NCBI GenBank assembly: GCA_013329045.1
Contig: DUKZ01000038.1
Span: 126,294 to 190,293, forward strand
Source: Candidatus Woesearchaeota archaeon
Lineage (GTDB): Archaea > Nanobdellota > Nanobdellia > Woesearchaeales > UBA9989
Direction: 5' to 3'
DNA: 64,000 nt
In this document: positions 19,970-35,711 of the stretch, in pieces
How positions within the stretch are numbered: the stretch's first letter is position 1
How the letters are laid out: the number at the start of each line of letters is the position of its first letter
Notes under the pieces: model-generated
Seen by the model: the letters and a program-made list of their open reading frames with translations, nothing else
Told to the model about the DNA's origin: nothing
The model's database searches: none
Position numbers and translations under genes: made by a program

Positions 19970-21163
19970 ATGGGGATTAGCCTGTGCATGATTGCACGAA
20001 ATGAGGAACAGCTCCTTGCTGATTGTCTTGACAGTGTGAAGGATCTTGTTGAGGAGATCATCTTTGTCGACACTGGCAGCGAGGACCAGACCGTAGCGAT
20101 AGCCTCAATATATACAAACCGAATCTTTCATAATCCATGGAAAGACAATGCAGATGAGCTGAGGAATTTTTCTCTTGGCCTTGCAACACAGGAATGGATC
20201 CTTGTCCTTGATGCTGATGAGGAACTGCCAAAACAAAGCTGTGATGCCATCCATGCATTGCTCAAGGATCCAACAGCTGATGGATATCTTCTTCTCCAAC
20301 GAAATTATACAAACTCATCGAGCGTCCCTGGATTTGCCCACCTTTCCTCGTTTTCTTCACCTAAACAACAGGGATTTCTCGGCTACTATGATAACCCCCT
20401 TTGCAGGCTGTTCAAACGGAAAAAAGAATTTCGCTTCACGACAAAAGTCCATGAAACGATAGAGCCTGCGATCCAGGCTCATGGGGTTCTTGCTCCAACA
20501 TCAATCATTATTGACCATTACCGTGAACTCAAGAACCAGGAAAAAGAAAAAGGGCACGCATACTATGAACGGCTGGGGAAGCATGTCCTGGATGCTCCAA
20601 CCGATGCAAAAAGCCTTGAGCGTCTTGGCATTGCCGCACACAACTTTCTTGGTGATCTGGACAAGGCAGAAGCTGCCTATAGGAAAGCTCTTGGCTTATC
20701 ACCACATCTTTACCGTGCACGGCTCAACCTGAGCGAGCTGTTCATCCAAAAGGGGGACATGCAAGAAGCGCTTTTGATAGTCAATGAAGGGCTTGCCCAT
20801 TTTCCGGATGATCCCTGGCTGCTCACGAATAAATCAACCATCCTCATCAACCTTAAACAGATTGCACCGGCAGAAGAAATCATCAACATTGTGCTTGGCA
20901 ATCATCCAACCCTTACCCCCGCCCTCCTCAACAAAGCAATCTGCCATGTGCTCAGGAAAGAGTATGCACCAGCATTGTCATGTTACCACTCTATCCTTTC
21001 GAGGGAGCCATGCAACCTGCAAACGCTCTACAACATGGCTTTGGTTTACATCCGGCTGGGCAGCATTGACAATGCAGAACTCTCCTTGGAGAAGGCACTC
21101 TCCTGCGACCCATCATTCTCTCAAGCAAAAAAATTAAAAGAAAAAATAAAAAAGAAGAACTAA
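19970..21163 (+). CDS. family-2 glycosyltransferase fused to TPR repeats
   Basis: The N-terminus ISLCMIARNEEQLLADCLDSV...VDTGSEDQT...VLDADE is a GT2 signature. The C-terminal ~200 aa form TPR-like helical repeats. Confidence 0.8.
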   Translation: MGISLCMIARNEEQLLADCLDSVKDLVEEIIFVDTGSEDQTVAIASIYTNRIFHNPWKDNADELRNFSLGLATQEWILVLDADEELPKQSCDAIHALLKDPTADGYLLLQRNYTNSSSVPGFAHLSSFSSPKQQGFLGYYDNPLCRLFKRKKEFRFTTKVHETIEPAIQAHGVLAPTSIIIDHYRELKNQEKEKGHAYYERLGKHVLDAPTDAKSLERLGIAAHNFLGDLDKAEAAYRKALGLSPHLYRARLNLSELFIQKGDMQEALLIVNEGLAHFPDDPWLLTNKSTILINLKQIAPAEEIINIVLGNHPTLTPALLNKAICHVLRKEYAPALSCYHSILSREPCNLQTLYNMALVYIRLGSIDNAELSLEKALSCDPSFSQAKKLKEKIKKKN

Positions 21164-22200: not shown

Positions 22201-23187
22201 ATGGGCTTATTACAATCATTACAACGGCGTGCGCGGGCAAATCCTCAAAGAATCGTATTTCCAGAGGGTGAAGAAGAGCGTATCCTCAAAGTTGCAGAAA
22301 AATGCGTGAAAACAAAAACAGCTGTTCCGTATCTTCTGGGTGACGAAAAAAAAATTATTCAGTTAAAACGAAAGTATAAGATAACAACAGATTTTGACAT
22401 TATCAATCCCCTAACAAGCCCTCTTCGCCAAAAACTTGCCGACGCATTCTTTGAACTGAGAAAAGAGAAAGGAGTTACTCCTGATGCAGCCCTCTTACAG
22501 ATGAATGATGCGATGTATTTTGGGACACTGCTCACCTACCTTTGCCTTGCTGATGGCGTTGTCTCTGGCTGTGTCCATACCACTGCAGATACGGTGAGGC
22601 CTGCATTGCAGATCATCAAAACCCGAGAACCATTTCATAAGGTCTCCGGGCTGTTTGTTTTGCTCTGGAAAAAGAAAGTATATTTTTTTGCAGACTGTGC
22701 GGTGATCATCGAACCAACACCAGAGGAGCTAGCTGACATCGCCTTGGACACTGCACATAATGCCCGGTGGCTTGGCATCACCCCCCGTGTTGTTTTCCTC
22801 TCTTTTTCTACCCATGATAACTATAACACTCCCCATCACCAAAATATCAAGAAAGCATTAGAGCTAGTCAAGACAAGGGATCCCAAGCTACTTGTTGATG
22901 GAGAAATGCAGCTTGATGCTGCCATTGTCCCAGAAGTTGGAAGGGTCAAATGCCCCAACAGTCCAATAAAAGGAGATGCGAATGTGCTCATCTTTCCAAA
23001 CCTCGAGTCGGCAAATATTGGATATAAACTTGTGGAGCGCTTTGGAAAAGCCATCGCTATTGGGCCAATCCTCCAGGGGCTCAGAAAGCCAGTCAATGAT
23101 GTTTCCAGGGGGTCTACTGTCGAGGATATCTTTGATACAACAATACTCACTTGCATCGAGGCCCAACAATGCTCATCCTTACACTAA
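22201..23187 (+). CDS. pta: phosphate acetyltransferase (PTA_PTB domain only)
   Basis: 328 aa. Motifs: IVFPEGEEERIL, DGVVSG, FADCAV, VVFLSFSTH, ANVLIFPNLESANIGYKL. Confidence 0.88.
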   Translation: MGLLQSLQRRARANPQRIVFPEGEEERILKVAEKCVKTKTAVPYLLGDEKKIIQLKRKYKITTDFDIINPLTSPLRQKLADAFFELRKEKGVTPDAALLQMNDAMYFGTLLTYLCLADGVVSGCVHTTADTVRPALQIIKTREPFHKVSGLFVLLWKKKVYFFADCAVIIEPTPEELADIALDTAHNARWLGITPRVVFLSFSTHDNYNTPHHQNIKKALELVKTRDPKLLVDGEMQLDAAIVPEVGRVKCPNSPIKGDANVLIFPNLESANIGYKLVERFGKAIAIGPILQGLRKPVNDVSRGSTVEDIFDTTILTCIEAQQCSSLH

Positions 23188-24266
23188 ACTGCGGGAGTTC
23201 TTCTATCAAATTTGCAGTGTATCAAAGTAAAGGTCAAAAGCAACTCACGACGGGTTATCAGGAGAATATTCTCTCTATCACCTCTTATCGTTCTTCTCTT
23301 AAACAGATCATCAATGAAACATCGCCTGATGCTATTGGGCATCGCGTCGTCCATGGCGGAATGCTCACCACCTCTTCTCTCATCACACCTTTTGTGATGA
23401 ACGAAATTAAAAGATATTCACACTATGCCCCCCTCCACAATCCTCCGGAGCTGCTTGGCATCACCATATGCAAAAAACACTTTGGTCATCTCCCACAAGT
23501 GGCAGTGTTTGATACAGCATACCATACAACAATCCCTTCCCCCGTTCGTACGTATGGGATCCCATATAAATATACAAAAAAAGGATATATGAAATATGGC
23601 TTCCATGGGACAAGCCATCATTACTGTGCAACGGAAGCTGCAAAGCTCCTTGGCAAGCCACTCTCTTCATGCAATCTTATCACCTGCCACCTTGGGAACG
23701 GATCATCTGTTTGCGCCATAAAAGGCGGAAAATCAGTTGATACCTCCATGGGGATGACCCCTCTTGATGGCGTCCTGATGGGGACGAGGTGCGGGATGCT
23801 TGATCCTGGCATCGTCCTAGCATTCCTCGAACAAGAAAAACTCTCTGTGAAACAGGTTGACCATCTTCTTAATCATTCGTCAGGCATGAAAGGGGTGTCT
23901 GGGATATCCCATGATTATCGGGCGTTGAAATACAACAAGCATCCGCGAGCCAAGCTCGTCCGTGAGATGCTTGCAATCAGCCTGCAAAAGATTATCGCAA
24001 GCTACCTTCCCGCCCTCCAGCGGGTTGATGCTATCATCTTTACCGCGGGGATTGGGGAGCATGTCCCAGAACTTCGGAAAGATATTGCTTTGGGGCTGGG
24101 GTTTTTAGGCGTAAAACTTGATGATCGGAAGAATAAGCGCAATGCTCCAATCATCAGCAAGGCAACATCCCCCATCAAGGTTTTTGTCATCAAAACAGAT
24201 GAACAACACCTCATCGCCCATGAAGTAGAAAGAGTCCTCAAACAACATACCGCAAAGAGGCGATAA
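23169..24266 (+). CDS. ackA: acetate kinase
   Basis: LTLNCGSSSIKFAVY, GHRVVHGG, AVFDTAYH, YGFHGTSH, HLGNGSS and FTAGIGE are canonical AckA motifs. At 365 aa the N-terminal lobe is somewhat shortened. Confidence 0.9.
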   Translation: MLILTLNCGSSSIKFAVYQSKGQKQLTTGYQENILSITSYRSSLKQIINETSPDAIGHRVVHGGMLTTSSLITPFVMNEIKRYSHYAPLHNPPELLGITICKKHFGHLPQVAVFDTAYHTTIPSPVRTYGIPYKYTKKGYMKYGFHGTSHHYCATEAAKLLGKPLSSCNLITCHLGNGSSVCAIKGGKSVDTSMGMTPLDGVLMGTRCGMLDPGIVLAFLEQEKLSVKQVDHLLNHSSGMKGVSGISHDYRALKYNKHPRAKLVREMLAISLQKIIASYLPALQRVDAIIFTAGIGEHVPELRKDIALGLGFLGVKLDDRKNKRNAPIISKATSPIKVFVIKTDEQHLIAHEVERVLKQHTAKRR

Positions 24267-25287
24267 TTCCCCCGAGTCCATCAGCCTGCATCCCCGCATC
24301 ACTATCACCATGGATGATCAACACTTTCCCATTCATCGATTCAACAGTCTTCATCATCCTTATGAGATCATCGATTGATGCATCTTGCCTAGCCTGAAGT
24401 ATCTTGCTATCAGTGATGATCAACATCTCAACAGCACCACTCTTACATGCCTTATCTACTTCATCCTTCCCATAAATTCCTTTCCCACCTTTACTAATCT
24501 CCCCTAAAATCCTTGCCACCTCATGCGCTTCCTTTGTGAGCATATCCTCCTTTAGCACCCCCTGCACTTCCTGGCGCCTGAGCAGCTCTGTTAGCGCCTG
24601 CTTTGTTACTGAAGAGACTGTCGCTAGCACCAAGCCTTTCCTCTCTTTTTCAGGGATTGCCTTCATGACTTCTTCCTTGAAGAAAGCCGGGCTTGCCAGG
24701 ATGATCCCCCCTGGCTTATATCTCTCCTTATAGGTCTGCATCTGCTGAGCGATCTCCTGGTAGAACGATCCTGCTTTTGTCTGGAAACTTTTCTTCTCAA
24801 CATCCCCCTGCATATCGCTGAGCATTTGTATTCCTTGCTGCTTGATGAGTGCAAACAAAGCCTGTTCCCTATCATGGACTGCAACCAGAATTGTTGGCAG
24901 TGGCCTTGTTGCTTCCTCAATCTTTTTCCTTTGATACTCCTGCCATTGCCCTTTGATAAGGGTAAAGATTGTGCCTTCCTCCACTGTCAATGTATGATAA
25001 CTTCCTTTTGGGATGTCCTCGATCTCTGAAATGACCTTTCCGCTAATCCGGAGCTCGGTTGCGAACTGGGCAAATTCTATCCTCTCAACAATGATCTCCA
25101 GATTGACCGGTCGCTTGATAACACTCGACTTCCTCTCTTCATCTGATCCTACCTTGATCTTTCTTAGTGTCCTACCCTGGACATGGTCTCCTGGCTCGAT
25201 GATCGCCTGCAGAAACCACAAGTCATCTGGCGATTCTACCTGAAGGGTCATTAACCCTTTTTTGGGAAAATTGCTCTTTATTTGCAT
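24238..25287 (-). CDS. pelA: Pelota (aRF1-like mRNA surveillance/ribosome rescue factor)
   Basis: 349 aa with a three-domain Pelota layout (LQVESPDDLWFLQAIIEPGD...). The 3' end overlaps the ackA 3' end convergently by 29 nt. Confidence 0.88.
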   Translation of the reverse strand: MQIKSNFPKKGLMTLQVESPDDLWFLQAIIEPGDHVQGRTLRKIKVGSDEERKSSVIKRPVNLEIIVERIEFAQFATELRISGKVISEIEDIPKGSYHTLTVEEGTIFTLIKGQWQEYQRKKIEEATRPLPTILVAVHDREQALFALIKQQGIQMLSDMQGDVEKKSFQTKAGSFYQEIAQQMQTYKERYKPGGIILASPAFFKEEVMKAIPEKERKGLVLATVSSVTKQALTELLRRQEVQGVLKEDMLTKEAHEVARILGEISKGGKGIYGKDEVDKACKSGAVEMLIITDSKILQARQDASIDDLIRMMKTVESMNGKVLIIHGDSDAGMQADGLGGIIASLRYVV

Positions 25288-25306: not shown

Positions 25307-25319
25307 TTTATATATATAG
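25307..25319. promoter_or_regulatory. palindromic TATA element (TTTATATATATAG) shared by divergent pelota and the surface operon
   Basis: It lies ~20-32 nt from both start codons (25287 on minus, 25341 on plus), implying short or absent leaders. Confidence 0.45.
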
Positions 25320-25340: not shown

Positions 25341-26531
25341 ATGAGAGGGCGTTCAAAAAGAGGTCAAGGAGCTGGCGCTGGGCAAGCTGCAACATTCATT
25401 GCACTCATCGCTTTCTTCATCGTACTCTATATCCTTTTCCTCCCCCCAGCAGACCGTGAAGCCCTCCTGAATGATGATACCAGCAGCACCTGCACTGGCA
25501 CTTTTTGCACCCATGAAGGAGAAATACTCCTCGAAGAAACCCCTGGGAAGCTCGATACCCTCGGGTTTTCCTCTTTTGAGCACCATATTGCAAGCTTCAC
25601 CATCTTTCAAAAAGAGGATGCAACCGAATTCCTCAAACTTCAAACAATTTCTGTAAAGAGCGACTGGTTCAAGAAAAACAGCGCTAATGCAACATTCTCC
25701 ATCCAAGATCCCACAAAAGTTTCCAGTGCCCTGCTTGCCTTTAGCACTCCCATCCGAAAAGGATTGCTTACGATCCAACTAAATAGAAAAACAATTTTCT
25801 CTGGTGATATTCACACAGAAAATATTGATCCAATCATGCTTCCCCCTGCTCTCCTCAACCAAGAAAATGTCCTTACATTCACCGTAGACAACCCTGGTTT
25901 TGCATTCTGGACGAGCAATGCGTACCGGCTGGAAAATCTCCAAGTCATTGGCACGGTAGTCGACAATACCCGTCAATCTGCCACACAATCATTCTTTATC
26001 ACCCAAAAAGAAAAGGAGAACCTCGAGCGTGTCAATCTCAAACTCTTCCCTGACTGCAATCCCTCTGCCAGCGGGATCCTCACCCTCCACATCAATGATC
26101 GGGCCATCTTCTCAGGCATTCCTGACTGCGGCATCCTTAACCGGTACGAGTTTGACCCTGCAACGCTCACCCCTGGAGAGAACACCTTCTCTGTCAAAGC
26201 TGACACGGGAAGCTATCTCCTCGACCAGATTGTTATTGTCACCGAACTTACCGCACCAGATTACCCCACCTATTACTTCCTCGTTGATCCCGAAGCCTAT
26301 GATGCAATCAGGGCCTTTGGGGTTGATGCAAACCTTGACATAGAATTCGTCGAACAGGAGGACTTGAACTCAATTGTCCTTAACTTAAATGGCGTAAAAA
26401 AACAGGTGAGAACCAGAGATATGTTCGCTTCATTGCTTGTCAATGATTTCATCCTGAAAGGAAACAATTACCTGCAGATTGTCCCGCAAAGCGATGTGAA
26501 CATAGCAAAGGTTCGTCTCACCCTCTCATAA
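25341..26531 (+). CDS. exported repeat protein with class-III (prepilin-like) signal peptide candidate; first gene of the surface operon
   Basis: The N-terminus MRGRSKRGQGAGAGQAATFIALIAFFIVLYILF has a basic head, a KRG/Q motif and a ~22-aa hydrophobic helix. It is followed by three ~100-aa internal repeats (LLTIQLNRKTIFSGD.. / ILTLHINDRAIFSGI.. / IVLNLNGVKKQVRTR..). Confidence 0.75.
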   Translation: MRGRSKRGQGAGAGQAATFIALIAFFIVLYILFLPPADREALLNDDTSSTCTGTFCTHEGEILLEETPGKLDTLGFSSFEHHIASFTIFQKEDATEFLKLQTISVKSDWFKKNSANATFSIQDPTKVSSALLAFSTPIRKGLLTIQLNRKTIFSGDIHTENIDPIMLPPALLNQENVLTFTVDNPGFAFWTSNAYRLENLQVIGTVVDNTRQSATQSFFITQKEKENLERVNLKLFPDCNPSASGILTLHINDRAIFSGIPDCGILNRYEFDPATLTPGENTFSVKADTGSYLLDQIVIVTELTAPDYPTYYFLVDPEAYDAIRAFGVDANLDIEFVEQEDLNSIVLNLNGVKKQVRTRDMFASLLVNDFILKGNNYLQIVPQSDVNIAKVRLTLS

Positions 26532-26558
26532 TGTTCTTAAAAAAAGAGGTATGGTGCT

Positions 26559-29500
26559 ATGCCCAGTGATGATGAAGTCCTGCGGGAAAAAGTCGATCAG
26601 GATATGGAAGATTTGAAGAAACGTGTTCGCAACGGAGAACGCTCCACTCAAGCTTTTGATGAGGAATCGTTTGCCCGAGAAATCCAGGAGAGCAAAGTAC
26701 GCGAACGAGCAGCCCGCCGGGAGCTGGTAGCAAATGAACAAATCCGGCGAACTAACCTTCAGGCAGCACAGCAAACAACAGGAAAACTTCCTTCACAGCT
26801 AGACAGGTTTGGGCAAGAGGCATTGTCACAAGACCAACGCCTTGCTGCGCAGGAAAGCGGACAAGAAGAAGCTTCTTGGAAACGAGCACAAAACGCTGTT
26901 CGCACCCAGACACAAATGGCTGCTTCTGGAATTCGGCAGATGGGCAGGGCAACTACACAGGCAGGCTTTGCATTTGCGCAAAAAACCGGGGAAGCTGCCC
27001 AACGAACGGGCGCTGCGACAGTACGAGGGGTTGGAACTGTTGGCAGGGCTGTGAGGCAGACACCATCTCGGGCATGGAACGGCGTCATCAAAATAAAGAG
27101 TGCTGTTGGAAATGTTGGCAATTTTGTCAGCCGCCAGATGCAGATGGACAATTTTGCGTATTGGAGCATTCTTCTCCTTTATCTGATTGATCTTGTTTCC
27201 GGCTTCAATTATATGATGAGGATAGTGATCTATATCCCAGCAGCGGCCATAGCCGCTGTTGCGTGGGGTGGAGGGGGTGACCTAAAGAGCACTGCCTCAA
27301 AATATTTTGGGTTCTACCTGCTTGTTGTCCTGCCACCATTCATGAAATTTTTTTCTATAGTCTACTCCCCTGCGACATCCATCTTTATTGATTACTTTGC
27401 TGTCTATGGAAACCTGTTTGTGTATATGGCATTGGTGCGTGCACCAGATCCTGGAAAACTCATCTACAAATTACCAAAGGTCGCTTATTTTACATTCATT
27501 GTGTTCACTCTCATAGGCTCGTCTATCAGCTTTGCGATGTTCTCTTCCGGGTATACCAGTAATATCAATGTGAACCTTGTGATGAAAGGAAGCTGGGATG
27601 CATTCAAGGCAGGATATGAGAACACAAAAATCGCGATTGTCCGGGGGCTTCGTGGCGCAAAAAACATTGTTCCCAACTATCTTGATATCGCGACGAATGG
27701 AGCGTATACTGGCAATGCAGATACGTCGAAGACGAGATATTGGGCTCTTGAGCCATCAGCCACCAGGCTCTTTAATCCTCCAAAAGGACTCAAGCCAAAC
27801 ACGGCCTTCCATGTCATCTCCACGTTCGATGGCTTTCGAGAAGTGCAAATCGAGGGCGAGGTCGTCAGGAAATTCGAGGATCTCTCGAGCAAAACACAGG
27901 TAAATTATGGGTGCAGAGCATATAAACTTCTTGATAAGGAGAGAACTTCCCTTGGTGATGGAACTGTTGATAAATCATCAGATATCCTTTTCAACATGTT
28001 AGGATGGAATTCTGCCGAGCCGGTTTCCAGCGATGTTCGCTGCAGCTTTACAAATGGCCTTTCAGAATCCGGAAAAATTGAGGTATATGCTGGCTTTTCG
28101 TTTGCTGCAGAAGCAGTGCACACCTTTTCCTATATAGACCAAGAAGAAGCATTATCACTCATGAGCACTTCACGGATGACTGGAAATGCGATCTTTGATT
28201 CAAGCACTGCGTCTTCTAGAGAGAACACCATCAAGGGAAAATTGAAAGCATTGGAAGAGAATACCATCACTACCACAACACCTGGGCCTGTGGTCATCGC
28301 AACAGAGTGGCGGACAGCATACCCATTACGCATAGACACAGAAAATCCTTCACAGCTTGATTTGCTCATCAGTATCCACAATACTCATGCATCAGGGCAA
28401 ATAGCCGGACTTTCTGATTTCACTGTTTCCCTTCCCAAAGGATTCACCCTCAGCGAATGCAGCGTTGGGAGGCGGCAGGAAAATGAAGGGACAATGAGCT
28501 TTTCCAAGACTGGAGGGGATGAATTCTATTCTACTTTCACCGCGAATTTTCCAGACACATTGTTTCCTGTGACAACCTCACTTTCCATGTGGTGCCCTGT
28601 CACATATACTACTGAAGTGCTTCGCGGTGGAGCAATCAAAGAAAGACAAGAACTTAGGCTTGCGACAAATTATAATTATGAAGTCGTGGATAAATATGAT
28701 ATTGTTGTTGCAAAATTGCCCGCGCTCAATACTGGCGGTTCCGGGGGCTTTGGCGGGGGGGCGTGCAGCGCGGCTGCTCACTGCAGCGGGTATAATGAAG
28801 AGTCATTGAAGAATGGAGTGTTTGCTGGATGCGCCCGCGACCACCAAGATATTTTCAAACGAGAGATGCAAGATCAAGGACTCGGGCTTGATCTAGTGAC
28901 CGTGTATGCGTTTGCCTATACAGAAAGCTCTTGCAACCCTGATGTCAATGATGGGGGGATACTCCAAGTAGACCAAGCATGCCTTTATGAAAAAAAATGC
29001 AGCGCTGTTGAAGACCAGATTCATTATGGCATCCAAGAACTCAAGGAGAAATATGAAGCAGCACGGGCTCTTGGCGTGTCAGATGATGATGCAGCAACAC
29101 TCATGTTTTTTGGCTATAATCGAGGGGTTGGTGCGATGAGAAAAGCTGCGGAATTCCTCAAGGCTGACCCGTCAGCCGGCATCCAGGATGCAATGGTGAA
29201 AGGATGCAAGGCATATTTTCCAAACCCTTCCATCTCTGGTGTGTGCGGGAGCGATGGGGAGAGATGCTGCAATTCCCCTGGCCTTGGAGCTGGCTATCCT
29301 GAGCGAGTGAAGAGCTTCATGCAGCAGGGATGCCAGCAGGCAGGGGGAAGCATTGCGTTGGCCGGTGGGACATGCAACAGCGCCGAAGGGAATTCTCCTA
29401 CAGGGGGATTTGGACAGACTGTTGATATGTCTGATTATATCTCACGGGAGCAAGTGAATATTGTTTCTACAAGGTACAAGCAGCGATCTGGCACTGTCGA

Positions 29501-29930
29501 CATGATCGTGATGCATCATACAGCAGGACGAACAGTTAAAGATGCGCTTTTGTCCTGGGTAAACAGGAAAGCTAGTGCACACTATATTGTTGATAAGGAT
29601 GGCACTATAGTGACAGTCATACCTGAGAATCAAGCAGCATGGCACGCCACATGCGTCAATGGTCATTCTATTGGGATCGAGATTGTGAACCTTGGGGAAG
29701 GCAATGATCCATATCCTCCCGCGCAAGTTCAAGCGGTCGATTCTCTCGTCAAATATCTTGCAGACAAATACCATATCCAAGATGGCAACATCATCGGGCA
29801 TGGGTGTGTCACCTCAAATAAGATGGCAAGTGAGCCAACAGACCTTCCCCGAGACCTTGGGAACGGGTTAAAATTATATACTCGCGAAAGCAATGCACCA
29901 TATCCATGCACCTTCCTTGGGTGTTCATAA
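26559..29930 (+). CDS. giant multi-pass membrane protein with two-module beta-rich ectodomain, SLT lytic transglycosylase domain and Amidase_2 (N-acetylmuramoyl-L-alanine amidase) domain
   Basis: 1123 aa. From N to C: a Q/A/R-rich cytoplasmic N-terminus; hydrophobic helices at ~27150-27560; SLT motifs AYTESSCNP..GGILQVDQ..FFGYNRGVG (Glu codon 28923-28925); and Amidase_2 motifs VDMIVMHHTAG..SAHYIVDKDGTIV..AWHA..NGHSIGIEIVN..IIGHG..EPTD (~29490-29860). Confidence 0.88.
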   Translation: MPSDDEVLREKVDQDMEDLKKRVRNGERSTQAFDEESFAREIQESKVRERAARRELVANEQIRRTNLQAAQQTTGKLPSQLDRFGQEALSQDQRLAAQESGQEEASWKRAQNAVRTQTQMAASGIRQMGRATTQAGFAFAQKTGEAAQRTGAATVRGVGTVGRAVRQTPSRAWNGVIKIKSAVGNVGNFVSRQMQMDNFAYWSILLLYLIDLVSGFNYMMRIVIYIPAAAIAAVAWGGGGDLKSTASKYFGFYLLVVLPPFMKFFSIVYSPATSIFIDYFAVYGNLFVYMALVRAPDPGKLIYKLPKVAYFTFIVFTLIGSSISFAMFSSGYTSNINVNLVMKGSWDAFKAGYENTKIAIVRGLRGAKNIVPNYLDIATNGAYTGNADTSKTRYWALEPSATRLFNPPKGLKPNTAFHVISTFDGFREVQIEGEVVRKFEDLSSKTQVNYGCRAYKLLDKERTSLGDGTVDKSSDILFNMLGWNSAEPVSSDVRCSFTNGLSESGKIEVYAGFSFAAEAVHTFSYIDQEEALSLMSTSRMTGNAIFDSSTASSRENTIKGKLKALEENTITTTTPGPVVIATEWRTAYPLRIDTENPSQLDLLISIHNTHASGQIAGLSDFTVSLPKGFTLSECSVGRRQENEGTMSFSKTGGDEFYSTFTANFPDTLFPVTTSLSMWCPVTYTTEVLRGGAIKERQELRLATNYNYEVVDKYDIVVAKLPALNTGGSGGFGGGACSAAAHCSGYNEESLKNGVFAGCARDHQDIFKREMQDQGLGLDLVTVYAFAYTESSCNPDVNDGGILQVDQACLYEKKCSAVEDQIHYGIQELKEKYEAARALGVSDDDAATLMFFGYNRGVGAMRKAAEFLKADPSAGIQDAMVKGCKAYFPNPSISGVCGSDGERCCNSPGLGAGYPERVKSFMQQGCQQAGGSIALAGGTCNSAEGNSPTGGFGQTVDMSDYISREQVNIVSTRYKQRSGTVDMIVMHHTAGRTVKDALLSWVNRKASAHYIVDKDGTIVTVIPENQAAWHATCVNGHSIGIEIVNLGEGNDPYPPAQVQAVDSLVKYLADKYHIQDGNIIGHGCVTSNKMASEPTDLPRDLGNGLKLYTRESNAPYPCTFLGCS
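29224..29254 (+). repeat. 31-nt exact direct repeat, copy 2 (inside the giant hydrolase gene, Cys-rich linker between SLT and amidase domains)
   Basis: Same 31-mer. It encodes ..NPSISGVCGSD.. Confidence 0.9.
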
Positions 29931-30988
29931 TGAAAAAAACATCACAAATATTCCATATTGCTTTTCTCTGCACCATCCTTCTTTTCCTTTCAGCTTGCAA
30001 TAAAGGAAGCTCCATCAAAGACTTCAATTTCCAGCAAGGCACGAAAGGGGTGAGCATGAGCACAATCAAAAATGCGCCTCCCCGAGAAATCATAGAAAAA
30101 GTGCAATTTAAGGTAGGCATCGAGCTGCACAATGAAGGAGCATATGATATCAAAGATGGCGAAGGATACTACCGAATTGTGCTTGATAAAGATCTCAACT
30201 GGTTTACCCAGCCACCTTATCAAACACTCCAGCCAGACAATCAAGGCATGGCAGCACCAGTCCTTGTAGACTTTTCCCTTAGAGGCAGGCAGGCAGCGCT
30301 TCCTCCAGGGGAGATTAGAGCCACGTTTGTTGATGTTGTGTCCAAGGAAGTTACTGGAGGACGAAAAGTTGATTCGAAAATCCGGGTAAACGGGTGCTAT
30401 TATTATGAGACAAAAGCGTTTACTGATATCTGTGTCAATCCTAATATTTATCAAGTCGGAAAGACGGACTATGTGTGTGAAACAAAACCGGTGAGCCTCT
30501 CTGGCGGTCAGGGCGGGCCGATCGATGTGACAAAAGTTGAGCCGACTATAATACCACTACAAAACGGCAATTATAAAATTAGGTTCAAGATTACTGCCCA
30601 TAATAGGGGAAAAGGAACTGCTTATAAGCCTACCACCAGCGGAGGGGTAACCGAAATTAGATCCGCATGTGTTGGAGAAAAACTTGGAGACCGATGGAAC
30701 AAAATAAAACTCTATGCAAAACTCTCTGAAGTACAGCTCAACTGCGCATTTGAGACACAAAACACCGGTGACTTTGCGAATACTGAAGGGGTTGGAATAC
30801 TCTTCAACAATGACCTTGAAGCGGTGTGCGAAACCCCTGAGATGACAGAAAAAACCCCTTATTTTACCCCCCTCTATGTCCATATGCAGTATGGGTATAC
30901 CTTTGATGAGGCTATCACCATCTCCATCGTCAACCAAAATTATGAATATGAACAAGCGCATCAGAAAGAAGGAAGTTCAGGACAGTAA
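29930..30988 (+). CDS. lipobox surface protein, paralog 1 (twin CARDB-like modules, Cys-rich)
   Basis: The signal peptide ends in the lipobox LFLSAC. Family motifs: FQQGTKG, VGIELHNEG, NGCYYYETKAFTDICVNP, VCETKPVSLSGGQGGPIDV, FKITAHNRGKG, MQYGYT. ATG 29930 overlaps the upstream stop (TAATG). Confidence 0.85.
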   Translation: MKKTSQIFHIAFLCTILLFLSACNKGSSIKDFNFQQGTKGVSMSTIKNAPPREIIEKVQFKVGIELHNEGAYDIKDGEGYYRIVLDKDLNWFTQPPYQTLQPDNQGMAAPVLVDFSLRGRQAALPPGEIRATFVDVVSKEVTGGRKVDSKIRVNGCYYYETKAFTDICVNPNIYQVGKTDYVCETKPVSLSGGQGGPIDVTKVEPTIIPLQNGNYKIRFKITAHNRGKGTAYKPTTSGGVTEIRSACVGEKLGDRWNKIKLYAKLSEVQLNCAFETQNTGDFANTEGVGILFNNDLEAVCETPEMTEKTPYFTPLYVHMQYGYTFDEAITISIVNQNYEYEQAHQKEGSSGQ

Positions 30989-31045
30989 TTGCGCTGTTTA
31001 AATAGAAAACATTATAAACACAATTTGCCAGGAAGACATGCAATA

Positions 31046-32089
31046 ATGGAAAAAAAGAGACATCTTATAAGGGTTCTTGTCCTGCTAATAGTATTCTTGC
31101 TTGTCGGCTGCAAAGGGAAGAAGCAAGAAGATTCAGGACCGTCTGCCACCATCAGCGGCAGTGATGGCATCAGCATGTCTTTCATGAAGATCGTGAGCGA
31201 TAAGGTCTATAGCAATGCGCAGATGCGGGTTGGCGTCGAAGTAGAGAATGAAGGGACTTGTGACATGGGGCGCTATGCTGATGGGACGTATGATTGTGTC
31301 GGACACATCAAGATGCTCGGTCTTGATCCTACTATCTTTCACATCCCCGATTGGGATAATGGGGGACGAGTGGCAACTCAGGTAGAACTTGGGCGAAGCG
31401 TCTTTTTGCCCGGGAAGAGCAATAATATCCCCACAGGAGGAAAAGAGATCATCACGTATCCTGGCATTACCGTCCAGCTGAATCCAGAATCTGCAGGGCA
31501 CAAAACGAATCTTGCCCTCCATGCCTGCTATCTCTATAAAACCAGAGCCACCATTCCTGTCTGCATTGATCCCCTAGCATATGGCGATTTCCTTGGAGAA
31601 AAAGTATGCGATGTCAAGCCAATCACCCTCAAGGACCAGGGAGCCCCTGTTGCCGTCGTTAAAGTTGATCCTGAAGTATTCCTTGGCAGCGGGAACCAAT
31701 ACCAGATGCAATTTCGCATCTACTTCAAGAATGTTGGCCCAGGCATGCTGTTCCAGGCGGACCGTGATGGAGCTGAAAATGAAAACCTTGAAGCATGCCC
31801 TGCAATTGACTATGATTACCAGAATAAAGTTAAAGTTGACAGAATCGTCCTTGGCTCGGTTGTCAATCCTGAACTTAGCATCCCTCTTATCTGCCAACCT
31901 GGGATTAGTGACCAGATAACCCTCTATGACAATCAAGGGCTTATCATCTGCCAAACAAACGGCGATCTTGGGCAAGATACCTATCAAACGACATTATTTG
32001 TCGAATTATCCTATGGTTACACCCAATCAATCAAGAAGCAAATAACTGTCGTTAATACTCCAACACTCCAGAGGGCAAACCTGAACTAA
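31046..32089 (+). CDS. lipobox surface protein, paralog 2
   Basis: Lipobox FLLVGC. Family motifs: VGVEVENEG, HACYLYKTRATIPVCIDP, VCDVKPITLKDQGAPVAVV, FRIYFKNVGPG, LSYGYT. Confidence 0.85.
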   Translation: MEKKRHLIRVLVLLIVFLLVGCKGKKQEDSGPSATISGSDGISMSFMKIVSDKVYSNAQMRVGVEVENEGTCDMGRYADGTYDCVGHIKMLGLDPTIFHIPDWDNGGRVATQVELGRSVFLPGKSNNIPTGGKEIITYPGITVQLNPESAGHKTNLALHACYLYKTRATIPVCIDPLAYGDFLGEKVCDVKPITLKDQGAPVAVVKVDPEVFLGSGNQYQMQFRIYFKNVGPGMLFQADRDGAENENLEACPAIDYDYQNKVKVDRIVLGSVVNPELSIPLICQPGISDQITLYDNQGLIICQTNGDLGQDTYQTTLFVELSYGYTQSIKKQITVVNTPTLQRANLN

Positions 32090-32090
32090 A

Positions 32091-33437
32091 ATGGAATCAG
32101 ACAAAAAAATATCAAAAACATCAAAAATATTCACTGCACTCCTTTTAGTATTCCTGCTTTTCCTGGCTGGATGCGGGGGAGGAGCTGCCAAAAAGACTCC
32201 TGAAGGGGGCTCTGACTTTCGCCGGGGGACTCAGGGTCTTGAGCTAGACTTTGTCCGGGGAACGCCCCCAGAAAAAATCATCGCTATCCCCTCCAATAAT
32301 CCACAATACAACTGGTTTACAAATATGTTTGGAGAAGGAGGGTTCTCTATTAATGTAGAAGTGATCAATAAAGGCGCTGAGAGCACCCCTCCAGTATTCT
32401 CTGAAGATGCCGATACGCTTTTTCCTAGTTATTTTCTTGGGACATATGGCTATTCCAGCCTTGGCGGCCTTGTCAACTATGATGCTGCATATTCTGCGTA
32501 CCCAGAACTCCATTCCATTTTTCCTCCACCAAATATCCATCTCTCAGGGTTTGACCAGTCAATCGTGCAGACGACAAATAGCATCGGGACGAGCGCTACG
32601 TATGGGTATGTGAACACCCCGGACTGGCTTCGCACCATGGAATGCGCATTCTTCTATGGAAGCATTGTCCAGTGCGTTGGCGGCGGCGGAGGGGCGCTTG
32701 GAGCACAATCAGGGCTCTATCCACAAATCAATACCATCGTTCCAATGCTTGGGACAGAAGAGACACGAGGAAGAGTGGGAATCAGAGACATCGTGAGCTT
32801 TACTGTTAACAATATTGCCATCTCCTCTGATATTGATAAGTATCCTGTCCGCTGGAAGGCCACCGCCTGCTATTACTATAAGACGGTTGCTTCACCTACC
32901 ATCTGCGTTGATCCAGACCAGTACTCTGTCGATGAGAAAGTATGCAAGGTGCAAGAGCATCAAGCCGTTTCTGGGGGCCAGGGAGCCCCTGTGGCAGTCA
33001 TTGGGGTTGACCAACAAATGAGCTATAACCGTGCATATTTTAAAATTACCATAAAAAATGTTGGCAGGGGAAAAGTATATGACCCCACAAACATTGATAT
33101 CCATTCCCGATGCATCATCGACAAGCTTCGTCCAGGCGATGTGAACAAGGTGTTCTATGATGTTGCTCTTGGCTCGTTCAACCAGAATTATGCCACTGGT
33201 GCCAGGAACATCAGATGCGACACAAATCCTCTCTTCCCCTATCCTTATTCTGGCGTTGCATACCTTGACCCTGATACTGGTGAGGGAGAAATCTTCTGCA
33301 CTCTTGAACTCACCGACTTCCAGGCCCACATTGGTTCCTCGACCTCAGCATTTTCATCTCCCCTTGCCATCCAACTCATCTATGGATATACAGAGTCAGA
33401 CTATGCTGATACAGAGATCATAACCCAGCCACGATAG
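32091..33437 (+). CDS. lipobox surface protein, paralog 3
   Basis: Lipobox LFLAGC. Family motifs: FRRGTQG, INVEVINKG, TACYYYKTVASPTICVDP, VCKVQEHQAVSGGQGAPVAVI, FKITIKNVGRG, LIYGYT. Confidence 0.85.
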   Translation: MESDKKISKTSKIFTALLLVFLLFLAGCGGGAAKKTPEGGSDFRRGTQGLELDFVRGTPPEKIIAIPSNNPQYNWFTNMFGEGGFSINVEVINKGAESTPPVFSEDADTLFPSYFLGTYGYSSLGGLVNYDAAYSAYPELHSIFPPPNIHLSGFDQSIVQTTNSIGTSATYGYVNTPDWLRTMECAFFYGSIVQCVGGGGGALGAQSGLYPQINTIVPMLGTEETRGRVGIRDIVSFTVNNIAISSDIDKYPVRWKATACYYYKTVASPTICVDPDQYSVDEKVCKVQEHQAVSGGQGAPVAVIGVDQQMSYNRAYFKITIKNVGRGKVYDPTNIDIHSRCIIDKLRPGDVNKVFYDVALGSFNQNYATGARNIRCDTNPLFPYPYSGVAYLDPDTGEGEIFCTLELTDFQAHIGSSTSAFSSPLAIQLIYGYTESDYADTEIITQPR

Positions 33438-33512
33438 AGACACGATAGCGCCCCATAATCAAAAACTTTAAATAACTGAAATCTGATGTTCAGAGAATAA
33501 AAGGAGGATACC

Positions 33513-34712
33513 ATGAAAAAGATCACTATTTTTCTCGTAGCAGTATTGCTTGTTCTCAGCGCCTGTGGCTCTTCGAAAGAGAATAGCGCCAGACCTGATG
33601 CAACAGAACCATTCATTGGAGGCAACGATGCCCTCAAATTTGGCTTTGCACAGGGAACACCACCAGACTTTGTCTTTGACAATAACCAGAACCCTTTTGC
33701 CATCGTAAACCAGATCGAGAACCTTGGCGAAGCAGACGTTCCTGCCAATAATCTTGTCATCAAGGTTGTCGGCGTCAATCCTATGGACTTTGGTATCGAT
33801 ACTGAAGCAGACCGGGCTGCCTATCGCTATCCTGGCCTTGACCCTAATGCGCTAGACATTGTTGATGCAAATAGGCAGTTTATCACTGGCGCCAGAAAAA
33901 ATTTTGATGGCACACAACTGCCAGGAGACAAGGACTATGTCGAATTCCCTGATCTTGTGTACCTGCCAGACCTCAATGGGAATACTGGGGTTATCATCCG
34001 GGCAGAGGCATGCTATAACTATATGACAAAAACATCAACACTCCTTTGCATCAAGAAAGACCTGCTTGCCGATTCAAACAGCGAAATTCGTGTCTGCAAA
34101 CTTTCAGAGGAAAAAGACGCAAAGAATTCCGGCGGCCCTGTCCAGGTCACTGCACTCAAACAAGTGCCCCAGGGAAGGAACAAAATCCAAGTCACTTTCA
34201 TGGTAGAACATGTTGGCCATAAGTCTGCCCGGCTCTATGAGATCGAACCAGCATATGCCGAAGGATATGAACACAGCGTCTCTACCGGCATTGACTTTAA
34301 AGGAGTTCCCATCAATGCACCAATCATCCAACAAAACACAGGACTTCCACCCGAGAGCTCATGCCTTGATGACGTGACAAACAGGAGAATGAACCGGGTG
34401 CTCATCGATGTGACATCGCTCCATAGCGGTCAGCCAGTCATCTGTTCTGGCTTTGATGCGACAGGCGTTGGAGGGGAGGCAATCCCAGCACCTCTTGGCG
34501 GCGTTCGGCAGGTTGGCAAATCACGAGGATATGTGACACTCTGGAAAGATGCCCAGGGAGGAACACTCCAACCAAGAGCAATCACGTGCACGATTGATAC
34601 GACAAACATCGGGCCTGATGAGGTATATGAAGAACTCCTGACCATGGATCTTTATTACACCTACCAGCAGAGCATCGAGAAACCGATGGAAATCAGAGAT
34701 GTGAAGACGTAA
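33513..34712 (+). CDS. lipobox surface protein, paralog 4 (most divergent)
   Basis: AGGAGG RBS. Lipobox LVLSAC. Family motifs: FAQGTPP, VNQIENLG, EACYNYMTKTSTLLCIKK, VCKLSEEKDAKNSGGPVQV, FMVEHVGH, LYYTYQ. Confidence 0.85.
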   Translation: MKKITIFLVAVLLVLSACGSSKENSARPDATEPFIGGNDALKFGFAQGTPPDFVFDNNQNPFAIVNQIENLGEADVPANNLVIKVVGVNPMDFGIDTEADRAAYRYPGLDPNALDIVDANRQFITGARKNFDGTQLPGDKDYVEFPDLVYLPDLNGNTGVIIRAEACYNYMTKTSTLLCIKKDLLADSNSEIRVCKLSEEKDAKNSGGPVQVTALKQVPQGRNKIQVTFMVEHVGHKSARLYEIEPAYAEGYEHSVSTGIDFKGVPINAPIIQQNTGLPPESSCLDDVTNRRMNRVLIDVTSLHSGQPVICSGFDATGVGGEAIPAPLGGVRQVGKSRGYVTLWKDAQGGTLQPRAITCTIDTTNIGPDEVYEELLTMDLYYTYQQSIEKPMEIRDVKT

Positions 34713-34723
34713 GAGTCTTCAAT

Positions 34724-34750
34724 TTATTTTTAACTTTTTTTTATTCTATT
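34724..34750. terminator. oligo-T/oligo-A tract between the convergent surface operon and rfcS
   Basis: TTATTTTTAACTTTTTTTTATTCTATTTT. Archaeal termination commonly uses T-runs. Confidence 0.35.
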
Positions 34751-34760
34751 TTCAAGAGTT

Positions 34761-35711
34761 TTATTCCTTCACCACAAAATTTGCCAGCAACGCCTGGACT
34801 TGCAAGAACTCATCACTCCCTTCTGTTATCCTAAACTCAATCTCGCCGCATTTGTCGATGAGATGGACTTTTCTTCTCTCCGGGATATCAAGATCCCAAA
34901 TGACTCGCTCAATTTGCTTGACAACATCAAGGCCGGAAAGGCCGTACTTGAGCATAACATCGAGAAGAGCTGATCTTGCCTCGAGGAATTTTCCCTGCAT
35001 GGCAAGAGAAAGAGCTTCGCCAATTTCCTTTGGCCTGGCAACAGCAGCAATCGAGTAAATGTCGTTCTCATCAATATTCTTCTTTAAAGCAGCGCAGGAC
35101 TGAAGGATATTTTCCATCTTCCTGCAGTCTCCCTCACTGACGATGAATAAGGCTTCTTTTGCCTGCCTATCTGCGCTGAGCCCCTCTTTTGCGATGATCT
35201 CATCTAGTATCTCAAATATCTCAGACTTTTCCAGCGGCTTGAAGCGAAAAACAGCGCATCTGCTCTGAATCGGATCTATGATCTTGGAAGAATAATTACA
35301 AGAGAGCACAAAACGAGTTGTCTGGGTGTAGTTCTCCATCGTCCTCCTGAGAGCTTGCTGGGCTTCTCTTGTCAAGGCGTCACATTCATCCAGAAAGATA
35401 ATCTTGAAAGGGACATTCTCCATCGCCCTTGTTCTCGCAAAATCCTTTACCTTATTCCTGATCACATCAATGCCGCGCTCATCTGACGCGTTGAGCTCAA
35501 GAAAACTCTGGTGCCAAATCTCCCCATAGAGCTGCTTTGCGATGACTAACGCCAGAGATGACTTTCCAACGCCAGCTGGCCCTGCAAAGAGGACATGAGG
35601 CATATTCTTTTCCCGGACAAAAGCCTTGCAGCGCTTGACGATCTCCTTTTGACCCTTTATCCCGCTAAAATCAACAGGACGATACTTTTCCGTCCAGATC
35701 GTGCTCGCCAT
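34761..35711 (-). CDS. rfcS: replication factor C small subunit
   Basis: WTEKYRP, GPAGVGKS (Walker A), FLDECD, SRC motif (IQSRCAVFRF). Confidence 0.93.
   Translation of the reverse strand: MASTIWTEKYRPVDFSGIKGQKEIVKRCKAFVREKNMPHVLFAGPAGVGKSSLALVIAKQLYGEIWHQSFLELNASDERGIDVIRNKVKDFARTRAMENVPFKIIFLDECDALTREAQQALRRTMENYTQTTRFVLSCNYSSKIIDPIQSRCAVFRFKPLEKSEIFEILDEIIAKEGLSADRQAKEALFIVSEGDCRKMENILQSCAALKKNIDENDIYSIAAVARPKEIGEALSLAMQGKFLEARSALLDVMLKYGLSGLDVVKQIERVIWDLDIPERRKVHLIDKCGEIEFRITEGSDEFLQVQALLANFVVKE

Follow-up and report, generated by a model that had tools for sequence, protein, structure and literature searches.

What would an archaeon do with a membrane protein that carries two hydrolase domains of the kind that cut bacterial cell walls? 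The question is raised by a stretch of 64,000 nucleotides (nt) from Candidatus Woesearchaeota archaeon (assembly GCA_013329045.1, contig DUKZ01000038.1, positions 126,294 to 190,293), which we refer to in its entirety as the window, and in which six open reading frames (ORFs), g1 to g6, lie closely spaced on the plus strand. The protein in question is g2, and the answer to which our analysis points is that its hydrolase domains are an accessory, exchangeable module on a surface operon that is itself widely conserved in Woesearchaeota. The six genes, with lengths in amino acids (aa), are as follows:

25341–26531, plus strand: g1, 396 aa, an N-terminally anchored surface protein with three tandem homologous beta modules
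26559–29930, plus strand: g2, 1123 aa, a predicted membrane scaffold with C-terminal hydrolases
29930–30988, plus strand: g3, 352 aa, lipobox LSAC, lipoprotein paralog 1, two tandem immunoglobulin-like (Ig-like) beta-sandwich domains
31046 (ATG) or 30989 (TTG) to 32089, plus strand: g4, lipobox LVGC, paralog 2, start ambiguous
32091–33437, plus strand: g5, 448 aa, lipobox LAGC, paralog 3
33513–34712, plus strand: g6, 399 aa, lipobox LSAC, paralog 4, the most divergent

An original prediction, made from the sequence of this region, had described the six genes as an operon, and the ORF listing and the sequence confirm the features on which it drew: six plus-strand ORFs with the spacing it gave, a TAATG stop/start overlap of g2 and g3 at 29928–29932, and a 1-nt gap between g4 and g5 at 32089/32091. 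A gap of 75 nt lies ahead of g6. Because of the TAATG overlap, the g3 start is most likely the ATG at 29930, which agrees with the 352-aa database entry P0002. (Here and below, P-numbers denote related proteins from the database and L001 to L058 denote related loci.) It was also borne out that every product carries an export or anchoring signal: a KRGQ motif plus a hydrophobic helix in g1, about five transmembrane (TM) helices in g2, and lipoboxes in g3 to g6.

Two hydrolase domains at the end of a membrane scaffold

The g2 protein can be divided into five parts:

aa 1–197, 26559–27149, plus strand: charged low-complexity N-terminus, predicted to be cytoplasmic
aa 198–329, 27150–27545, plus strand: about five TM helices by hydropathy scan, conserved in orthologs
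aa 330–725, 27546–28733, plus strand: conserved beta-rich ectodomain with a C-terminal Y-x-Y strand, the hallmark of the g2 family
aa 739–936, 28773–29366, plus strand: divergent SLT-type (lysozyme-like, GH23-like) lytic transglycosylase domain, preceded by a Gly-rich linker
aa 978–1082, 29490–29804, plus strand: Amidase_2 domain (N-acetylmuramoyl-L-alanine amidase)

The amidase domain was recognized directly. It matches Pfam PF01510 with an E-value of 6.9e-30 (104.5 bits, where the cutoff is 26), and its relatives among solved structures in the PDB include AmpDh2 (4bj4, 2.6e-10) and AmiD (2bh7, 1.4e-8), so that the assignment made in the original prediction holds. An endolysin amidase in the PHROGs collection matches the same domain at 3e-24. 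Residues H986, E1041, and H1081 align with the corresponding residues of AmpDh2. (In the second of two AlphaFold2 [AF2] models, which lacked alignment depth for this half of the add-on, the amidase has a pLDDT below 50, and the model is unreliable there.)

The SLT-type domain was identified by a more roundabout route. It contains the motifs E789-S790, GGILQV (799–804), and GYNRG (852–856). An exhaustive phmmer search of 1.84 billion representative sequences yielded 92 relatives of the region, 50 of them at E<=1e-10, and when the top 48 were scanned with Pfam, 23 passed the threshold for SLT (best E-value 1.4e-12) and six that for Lysozyme_like. The domains with which members of this subfamily are combined are M23, NlpC/P60, Amidase_2, Amidase_3, VanY, CHAP, glucosaminidase, and LysM, all of them wall hydrolases or wall binders. 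In the 36–48 relatives that could be aligned, the glutamate corresponding to E789, the glycine of the GILQ motif, and the N-R-G triplet are invariant, and the serine next to the glutamate is present in at least 90%. An AF2 model built with the subfamily alignment gave an all-alpha, lysozyme-like fold with a pLDDT of about 96 over aa 739–936. The six best PDB matches of the model in Foldseek are all wall hydrolases (probability 0.97–1.0), among them MltC (4c5f), the two Gram-positive enzymes Clostridioides difficile CD630_03720 and the Staphylococcus aureus NLP/P60-family lipoprotein SAV0400 (4hpe and 4fdy), LtgA (6h5f), and MltF (4oxv). A tblastn search of phages and plasmids with the SLT region found no match. 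The assignment of aa 739–936 as an SLT-type domain is thus confirmed, if only indirectly, by transitive homology, motif, and model; direct sequence searches of Pfam and the PDB do not recognize the domain.

We note in passing that the same SLT subfamily forms the extreme C-terminus of two giant proteins, P0079 (MEW6295803.1, 2631 aa) and P0081 (2723 aa), the first of which comes from a Candidatus Diapherotrites archaeon, a member of another DPANN lineage. These giants may be the family of proteins of "up to 3000 aa" described in PMC8204110.

On the strength of these sequence and model comparisons we accept g2 as a predicted membrane-anchored double murein hydrolase (SLT-type plus Amidase_2) that has the expected catalytic motifs, as the original prediction had it. 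Four results weigh on the other side. The direct Pfam scan of the SLT region gave no match to SLT (PF01464), and Lysozyme_like (PF13702) reached only E=0.064, its 13.2 bits falling short of the cutoff of 25; phmmer of the same region against the PDB returned nothing at E<=10; the Foldseek E-values for the SLT model are modest (0.015–0.14); and the amidase alignment with AmpDh2 ends ahead of the third zinc ligand, for which the candidates, picked by eye, are K1088 with either E1092 or D1095. The great divergence of the SLT domain and the position of that ligand outside the alignment would also suit the alternative that both domains are catalytically dead and serve only to bind peptidoglycan in adhesion. 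We consider this highly unlikely, given the invariance of the catalytic glutamate and the near-invariance of the serine across the SLT subfamily, the alignment of three amidase residues with AmpDh2, and the canonical SLT, M23, or Amidase_3 domains above Pfam cutoffs that other lineages carry.

The remainder of g2 is the scaffold. Its first 197 residues contain 32 K+R and 25 D+E and no signal peptide, and their length varies among orthologs. The predicted topology places the N-terminus inside and the C-terminus outside, with some 800 aa exposed. From aa 1 to about 725 the protein aligns with proteins of 500–660 aa that occupy the same position in related operons, and aa 726–1123 are an add-on, consisting of the Gly-rich linker, the all-alpha domain, a second linker, and Amidase_2. 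A hidden Markov model of the ectodomain (aa 385–725) matches 55 ORFs in the loci that we fetched, and C452, C495, C634, and Y705 are invariant in this family. The profile of the core family found nothing significant among PDB sequences. A homology search with full-length g2 found only g2 itself, and one with the alignment of the core found nothing, probably because the word prefilter was swamped by TM and low-complexity words; the orthologs were recovered instead through synteny and a pattern scan of metagenomes.

The original prediction had also seen, in the ectodomain, motifs shared with the four lipoproteins. The motif pairs it named are exactly those that hhalign brings together in an alignment of the ectodomain with the lipoprotein family (161 colinear columns), but the support is weak (P=1.1e-3, probability 20%), and a distant homology of the ectodomain to the lipoprotein domain is plausible on this comparison.

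Conserved gene order and exchange of the C-terminal module

Is the combination seen in the window peculiar to it? The block lies between two minus-strand housekeeping genes, as predicted and as Pfam confirms:

24238–25287, minus strand: pelota (Pfam eRF1_1/2/3), divergent from the operon
34761–35711, minus strand: RFC small subunit gene (rfcS; Pfam Rep_fac_C and AAA), the downstream neighbor

When the lipoprotein family was used as the query, 11 relatives came up. On their contigs, minus-strand pelota is followed by plus-strand genes whose products are a 400-aa protein, one of about 600 aa, and three lipoproteins, and then by rfcS, again on the minus strand. Scanning one genome for each GTDB species with the g1 family brought 15 loci to light; the record titles name Woesearchaeota or Nanoarchaeota in nearly every case, and a few bin labels are evidently wrong. 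Another 37 loci came from metagenomes scanned with the g2 ectodomain. Every locus long enough to show it has the order g1, g2, and then one to four lipoprotein genes. More than 50 independent loci share this gene order, which places the pattern beyond chance. Pelota adjoins the operon in most related loci, usually divergent and just upstream of g1 (38 loci have a pelota match), and 15 related loci, as well as L057 and L058, have rfcS on the downstream side. The locus is an old, vertically inherited chromosomal operon of Woesearchaeota and not an island. That a surface operon should stay tied to pelota and rfcS throughout an archaeal order makes for a linkage of unusual stability. Six of the loci (L007, L009, L010, L014, L016, and L017) were deposited in metagenome-assembled genomes (MAGs) named "uncultured Methanosarcinales archaeon" or "Alphaproteobacteria bacterium", which are probably mis-binned or mislabelled.

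Most g2 orthologs end right after the ectodomain, and about 85% have no hydrolase. Scaffolds with a recognizable hydrolase make up about 15% in two unbiased samples (2/14 and 5/~33), and every C-terminal extension that could be recognized is a peptidoglycan hydrolase:

L015: C-terminal Peptidase_M23 (Pfam E=4.9e-20; HxxxD and HxH motifs seen)
L017: C-terminal SLT (Pfam)
L049–L052 and L055: C-terminal SLT, of subfamilies that differ from that of the window
P0032, P0058, and P0074: C-terminal SLT of the window's subfamily
P0099 (L057, 8001–11054): C-terminal SLT plus Amidase_3

Neither BLASTP nor hhalign found a match between the SLT domain of the window and the SLT extensions of the other g2 orthologs, so these belong to different subfamilies. 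P0099 sits at the identical locus as g2, between TrmB and pelota on one side and rfcS on the other, and carries SLT together with Amidase_3; thus, a glycan-cutting domain and an amidase for the stem peptide have been brought together twice, with non-homologous amidases. In a crude neighbor-joining tree the scaffolds that bear hydrolases occupy two or more distinct regions of the g2 family.

Because the core is conserved beside pelota while some 85% of orthologs lack a hydrolase, we regard the hydrolases as an accessory, exchangeable C-terminal module. The proposal that the operon as such is a dedicated apparatus for breaching murein does not survive this result, since the same core recurs beside pelota across Woesearchaeota, mostly hydrolase-free. 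Wall-cutting cassettes vary by lineage at one position of the scaffold, including two non-homologous amidases at the same locus, and the type of cassette could be a predictive marker for lineages that come into contact with bacteria having a murein wall.

Four further g2 orthologs (L006, 9555–12215; L010, 11307–13775; L045, 5179–7242; and L017, 11805–15032, in its last ~250 aa) have C-terminal extensions of 100–250 aa that gave no Pfam match. These may be binding or catalytic modules.

The distribution of the cassettes bears on whether the hydrolases might be autolysins, remodelling a murein- or pseudomurein-like wall that the archaeon itself makes, with the operon as a complex for wall assembly and remodelling. 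A conserved, housekeeping-like locus is what such a function would lead one to expect, and bacterial SLT and amidase pairs do act in cell separation, according to PMC13174416. An essential autolysin, however, would be conserved, whereas most of the orthologous operons have no hydrolase. The 64-kb window contains no mur-type gene. Pseudomurein, moreover, contains no N-acetylmuramic acid (MurNAc) and has beta-1,3 linkages, as is well established, and archaeal peptidoglycan hydrolases are nearly absent from pseudomurein producers (PMC12352652). We find an autolysin scarcely credible.

The surface proteins, a proposed role, and known systems

What does the rest of the operon contribute? The g1 protein has one hydrophobic TM helix (aa 16–34, by hydropathy scan), which follows the KRGQ motif. 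Its N-terminus is conserved in about 45 orthologs, as [KR][KR][GA]Q in most of them, a small-residue spacer (six to nine small residues between the motif and the hydrophobic core in the ortholog alignment), the hydrophobic helix, and LPPxxRxxLL. The ectodomain consists of three tandem homologous modules (hhalign E-values of 2.9e-9 for modules 1 and 2 and 6.3e-7 for modules 2 and 3). The protein has no match in Pfam, NCBIfam, or PDB sequences, and the family profile found nothing significant among PDB sequences, the best hit (E=0.37, to residues close to the N-terminus of a GH26 mannanase) being a lead only. The description of g1 as pilin-like remains unproven: the [KR][GA]Q motif is conserved, but no pilin profile in Pfam or NCBIfam matches, and neither the neighbors of the operon in the loci inspected nor the scanned genes of the window include a type IV filament ATPase, a platform protein, or a prepilin peptidase. 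The window sequence, KRGQGAG, presumably departs from the strict FlaFind pattern.

The g3 to g6 proteins are true paralogs (BLASTP E-values of 1e-23, for g4 against g3, to 8e-5), and a canonical lipobox is present in them and in all 34 orthologs and paralogs that we inspected, including the product of L006 14210–15181, whose LMGC had been missed by the pattern and was seen by eye. An AF2 model of g3 (pLDDT 82.5, pTM 0.75) shows two tandem Ig-like beta-sandwiches, for which Foldseek finds integrin calf and thigh domains, complement MG domains, transglutaminase C-terminal domains, and streptococcal AgI/II domains; in a viral structure library the model resembles DUF11 and clumping-factor-like repeats. 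Judging from the model, the fold is of an adhesin-like class, a generic tandem Ig-like sandwich that points to no specific family. Four lipobox paralogs with predicted beta-sandwich folds had been proposed, and that much stands. Their further description as CARDB-like does not: none of the six proteins gives a PF07705 match at E<=1, and with a fold this generic we reject membership in that family. The g5 protein has an insertion of about 100 aa and is the ortholog of the penultimate gene product in related operons; g6 is the ortholog of the last one (for example, P0004 and L001 8767–9816), with g6-type matches at 4e-51 to 3e-23. In the related loci, the lipoproteins never carry a hydrolase domain recognized by Pfam.

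Two variations among the lipoproteins deserve mention. In some loci (L043, 6897–10418; L048; L042, 2043–4328; and L056, 1234–3132) several lipoprotein genes are replaced by a single ORF of 761–1173 aa, possibly representing fused paralogs; the oversized lipoproteins (L043, of 1173 aa, L042, L056, L014, and others) have no Pfam domains. The first lipoprotein of an operon from marine sediment (L001, 6119–7393) ends in about 90 Cys-rich residues (CTYC...CSDW...CTCSQEEC...CCVPQR) that are not found in the paralogs of the window.

Starting from the gene order and its conservation, the identities of the domains and their conserved motifs, the predicted topology, and the exchange of cassettes, we propose that this is a conserved adhesin-like surface operon whose add-on hydrolases act on contact with a bacterial partner or prey and open its sacculus. 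In such a scheme g1, g2, and the lipid-anchored paralogs would sit together on the outside of the single archaeal membrane as an adhesin-like complex, with g2 as a polytopic scaffold made up of the cytoplasmic tail, some five TM helices, and the beta-rich ectodomain. In the lineage of the window, the distal end of g2 would present the SLT and amidase domains, joined by Gly-rich linkers, the one cutting the bonds between MurNAc and N-acetylglucosamine (GlcNAc) in bacterial peptidoglycan and the other stripping its stem peptides. Being membrane-tethered, and these archaea not being known to make murein, the enzymes should act only on bacterial peptidoglycan at the archaeal surface, where they would open the sacculus locally, for attachment, access, or lysis.

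Our belief in this proposal is evenly divided, and further points speak against it. Most lineages lack a cassette, so the core operon clearly has some function unrelated to murein, and with about 85% of g2 orthologs free of hydrolase domains any bacterial link would be limited to a minority of lineages. A short tether would not reach the sacculus of a diderm unless the outer membrane had been breached. Finally, the assembly of the complex, the activity of the enzymes, their target, and the physiological role are all steps that we infer.

A broader version of the proposal would accommodate the lineages that lack hydrolases. The operon could encode a cell–cell contact organelle found throughout Woesearchaeota, with which these very small archaea grip other cells and which the cassette tunes to the envelope of the partner: absent where the partner is an archaeon or has no wall, and present where it is a murein-walled bacterium. 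This is possible but rather unlikely; if true, DPANN archaea living on bacteria would for the first time have an apparatus for attachment and penetration that is defined genetically. Most Woesearchaeota have no known host.

The hydrolases might alternatively serve nutrition, with the tethered SLT and amidase domains digesting free peptidoglycan fragments or necromass to yield amino sugars and peptides for a reduced cell, and g1 and the lipoproteins holding the polymer. Short-linker tethering at the membrane suits diffusing substrates as well as contact, peptidases of the M16, M24, and M50 types are encoded in the window, as is the fermentative pta-ackA pair, and a DPANN "shunt" that recycles cell components has been proposed (PMC9723730). 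Set against this, neither the operon nor its conserved flanks contain a transporter or a substrate-binding-protein family, the lipoproteins match no solute-binding fold in Foldseek, and the fusion to a scaffold and the swapping of SLT, M23, and amidase domains look more like machine-associated, wall-punching enzymes than like nutritional glycosidases. We judge scavenging to be unlikely.

The nearest functional analogues are the specialized hydrolases of bacterial trans-envelope machines and phage virions, such as VirB1, FlgJ, the SLT+CHAP or NlpC/P60 enzymes of Gram-positive conjugation systems, and tail-associated lysins. In these, as in g2, a wall-cutting module rides on a structural component and acts locally, and SLT, M23, amidase, and NlpC/P60 domains are exchanged in modular fashion. 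The bacterial machines, however, cut the wall of the cell that produces them; the archaeon is not known to have such a wall, and so the target of g2 would have to be foreign. Nor is the operon accompanied by genes for a secretion ATPase, tube, or tail.

The idea that archaea of this group attack bacterial walls is itself not new. Murein-type lytic transglycosylases of Woesearchaeota and Pacearchaeota have been published and read as means of attack on bacteria (PMC8204110, PMC9723730, PMC10936187). Castelle et al. 2021 (PMC8204110) described fam00969, large extracellular or membrane-bound murein-like transglycosylases, for which that paper cites Rinke 2013 and Castelle 2015, and Vigneron et al. 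2022 (PMC9723730) described "vampiristic" Woesearchaeota from the AR20 genome and Lake A MAGs. Enzymes of the fam00969 type, as described, share with g2 the archaeal group, an SLT/GH23 domain, a predicted extracellular location, and a proposed target in the bacterial wall. They differ in being single large proteins, whereas g2 combines SLT and Amidase_2 on a five-TM scaffold in a pelota-linked operon with lipoprotein paralogs, and most orthologs of that scaffold have no hydrolase.

Secreted peptidoglycan hydrolases of haloarchaea, Woldo and Danwoldo (Halogranum salarium), have been found experimentally to kill bacteria (PMC12352652), and they too are archaeal proteins with bacterial-type peptidoglycan hydrolase domains aimed at bacteria. 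They are soluble, Tat-secreted, equipped with peptidoglycan-binding domains, and biased to plasmids and small contigs, whereas g2 is predicted to be polytopic and membrane-tethered, is encoded at a chromosomal core locus, and has no recognized peptidoglycan-binding domain. Could g2 nevertheless be their membrane-bound counterpart, a contact-dependent antibacterial weapon for competition or defence? In addition to the experimental killing by archaeal peptidoglycan hydrolases (PMC12352652), one could cite the closeness of its amidase domain to phage endolysin amidases and its variable C-terminal catalytic module on a constant body, which recalls the architecture of polymorphic toxins. Its locus by pelota, however, is a stable part of the chromosome, neither plasmid-biased nor patchy like the published weapons (PMC12352652); no small, immunity-like gene follows g2; and a polytopic protein could not be released. 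A weapon seems to us quite improbable.

Two further comparisons concern single components. AmpDh2, AmpDh3, and AmiD, Amidase_2 enzymes of the Gram-negative periplasm or membrane, are the best relatives of solved structure, with the His, Glu, and His residues conserved; the alignment spans 113 residues at about 35% identity, and the g2 amidase differs in being the C-terminal module of an archaeal membrane protein. Lipobox lipoproteins and the biogenesis enzyme AliA have been reported in DPANN (AliA/AliB pathway, PMC12462473), and g3 to g6 and the orthologs examined likewise carry a canonical lipobox after a signal sequence. Unlike the lipoproteins of that pathway, the g3–g6 family has no annotated function or Pfam domain, and its lipidation is predicted.

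The original prediction knew of no described system with this gene composition. In that form the claim is too broad, since transglycosylases and other hydrolases of archaea that act on murein have been published (PMC8204110, PMC9723730, PMC10936187, PMC12352652). It does stand for the scaffold operon: in the literature that we searched there is no description of the pelota-linked operon, the five-TM scaffold, the three-module g1, or the lipoprotein paralog family, and no account of an exchange of SLT, SLT+Amidase_2, SLT+Amidase_3, and M23 at the C-terminus of a scaffold. The link from archaeal murein hydrolases to bacterial contact is thus already known, and the conserved platform and the swapping of cassettes on it are new. 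Isolated hints from transglycosylases are in this way placed in a defined, conserved chromosomal surface operon that is inherited across the group, in keeping with published ideas of these tiny archaea attacking or feeding on bacteria, to which it adds a defined gene platform. There are six defined proteins to localize, and the soluble domains can be assayed on sacculi. Even if only the most ordinary reading is true, the locus would be a well-characterized case of bacterial wall hydrolases acquired horizontally by an archaeal envelope protein.

Chromosomal setting

Could the hydrolases have reached the contig by misassembly of a bacterial or viral fragment? The bacterial and phage type of the domains is what would suggest this. 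However, GC content is even over the operon block (0.456–0.475, against about 0.45 typical of the window and a window range of 0.39–0.48), the synteny of pelota, operon, and rfcS recurs in many independent assemblies, the g2 ectodomain has no relatives in IMG/VR, and no phage or defence family was found save the amidase, the only phage-family match in a PHROGs scan of the products, whereas a PADLOC scan for anti-phage defence families found none. The rest of the window is archaeal housekeeping, with SecY, an EMC3/YidC-like insertase, FEN1, the alpha and beta subunits of PheRS, and AglB/STT3, together with a tRNA-splicing endonuclease, TFE-alpha, Hef, and a fused PriS-PriL primase. The operon sits on an archaeal (Woesearchaeota-type) chromosome, as the original prediction had assumed, and the probability of an artefact is negligible, the conserved synteny having effectively refuted it. 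The same results bear out the absence of mobile or viral genes beside the operon, and we rejected a prophage, a virion-associated lysin, and a defence island on the grounds of the single PHROGs match, the empty PADLOC and IMG/VR results, and the housekeeping flanks.

Three further features flank the operon:

25308–25319, plus strand: tttatatatata, an AT-rich, TATA-box-like element read in the sequence, about 22 nt upstream of the g1 start
34722–34745, plus strand: T-rich tract read in the sequence, after the g6 stop
22201–24266, plus strand: pta-ackA (Pfam), upstream of pelota

The first is a candidate archaeal promoter of the operon and the second a candidate archaeal oligo-T terminator, and the two would fit a single archaeal transcription unit. 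Searches for tRNAs and Rfam elements found none. The pta-ackA genes had been taken as consistent with bacterial contact, an argument that we do not uphold: they are merely conserved neighbors, which lie just upstream of pelota also in L055 (3–2121), from a different lineage with SLT, so that this part of the neighborhood is conserved too.

Finally, we note two other genes of the window. About 4 kb upstream of the operon, beside a TrmB regulator, a GT2 glycosyltransferase is fused to TPR repeats (19970–21163, plus strand); it may be envelope-related. The primase gene, a 448-aa ORF at 50631–51977 on the minus strand, matches the families of both DNA primase subunits, small and large, and so encodes a fused PriS-PriL primase, a feature of Nanoarchaeum-type genomes.

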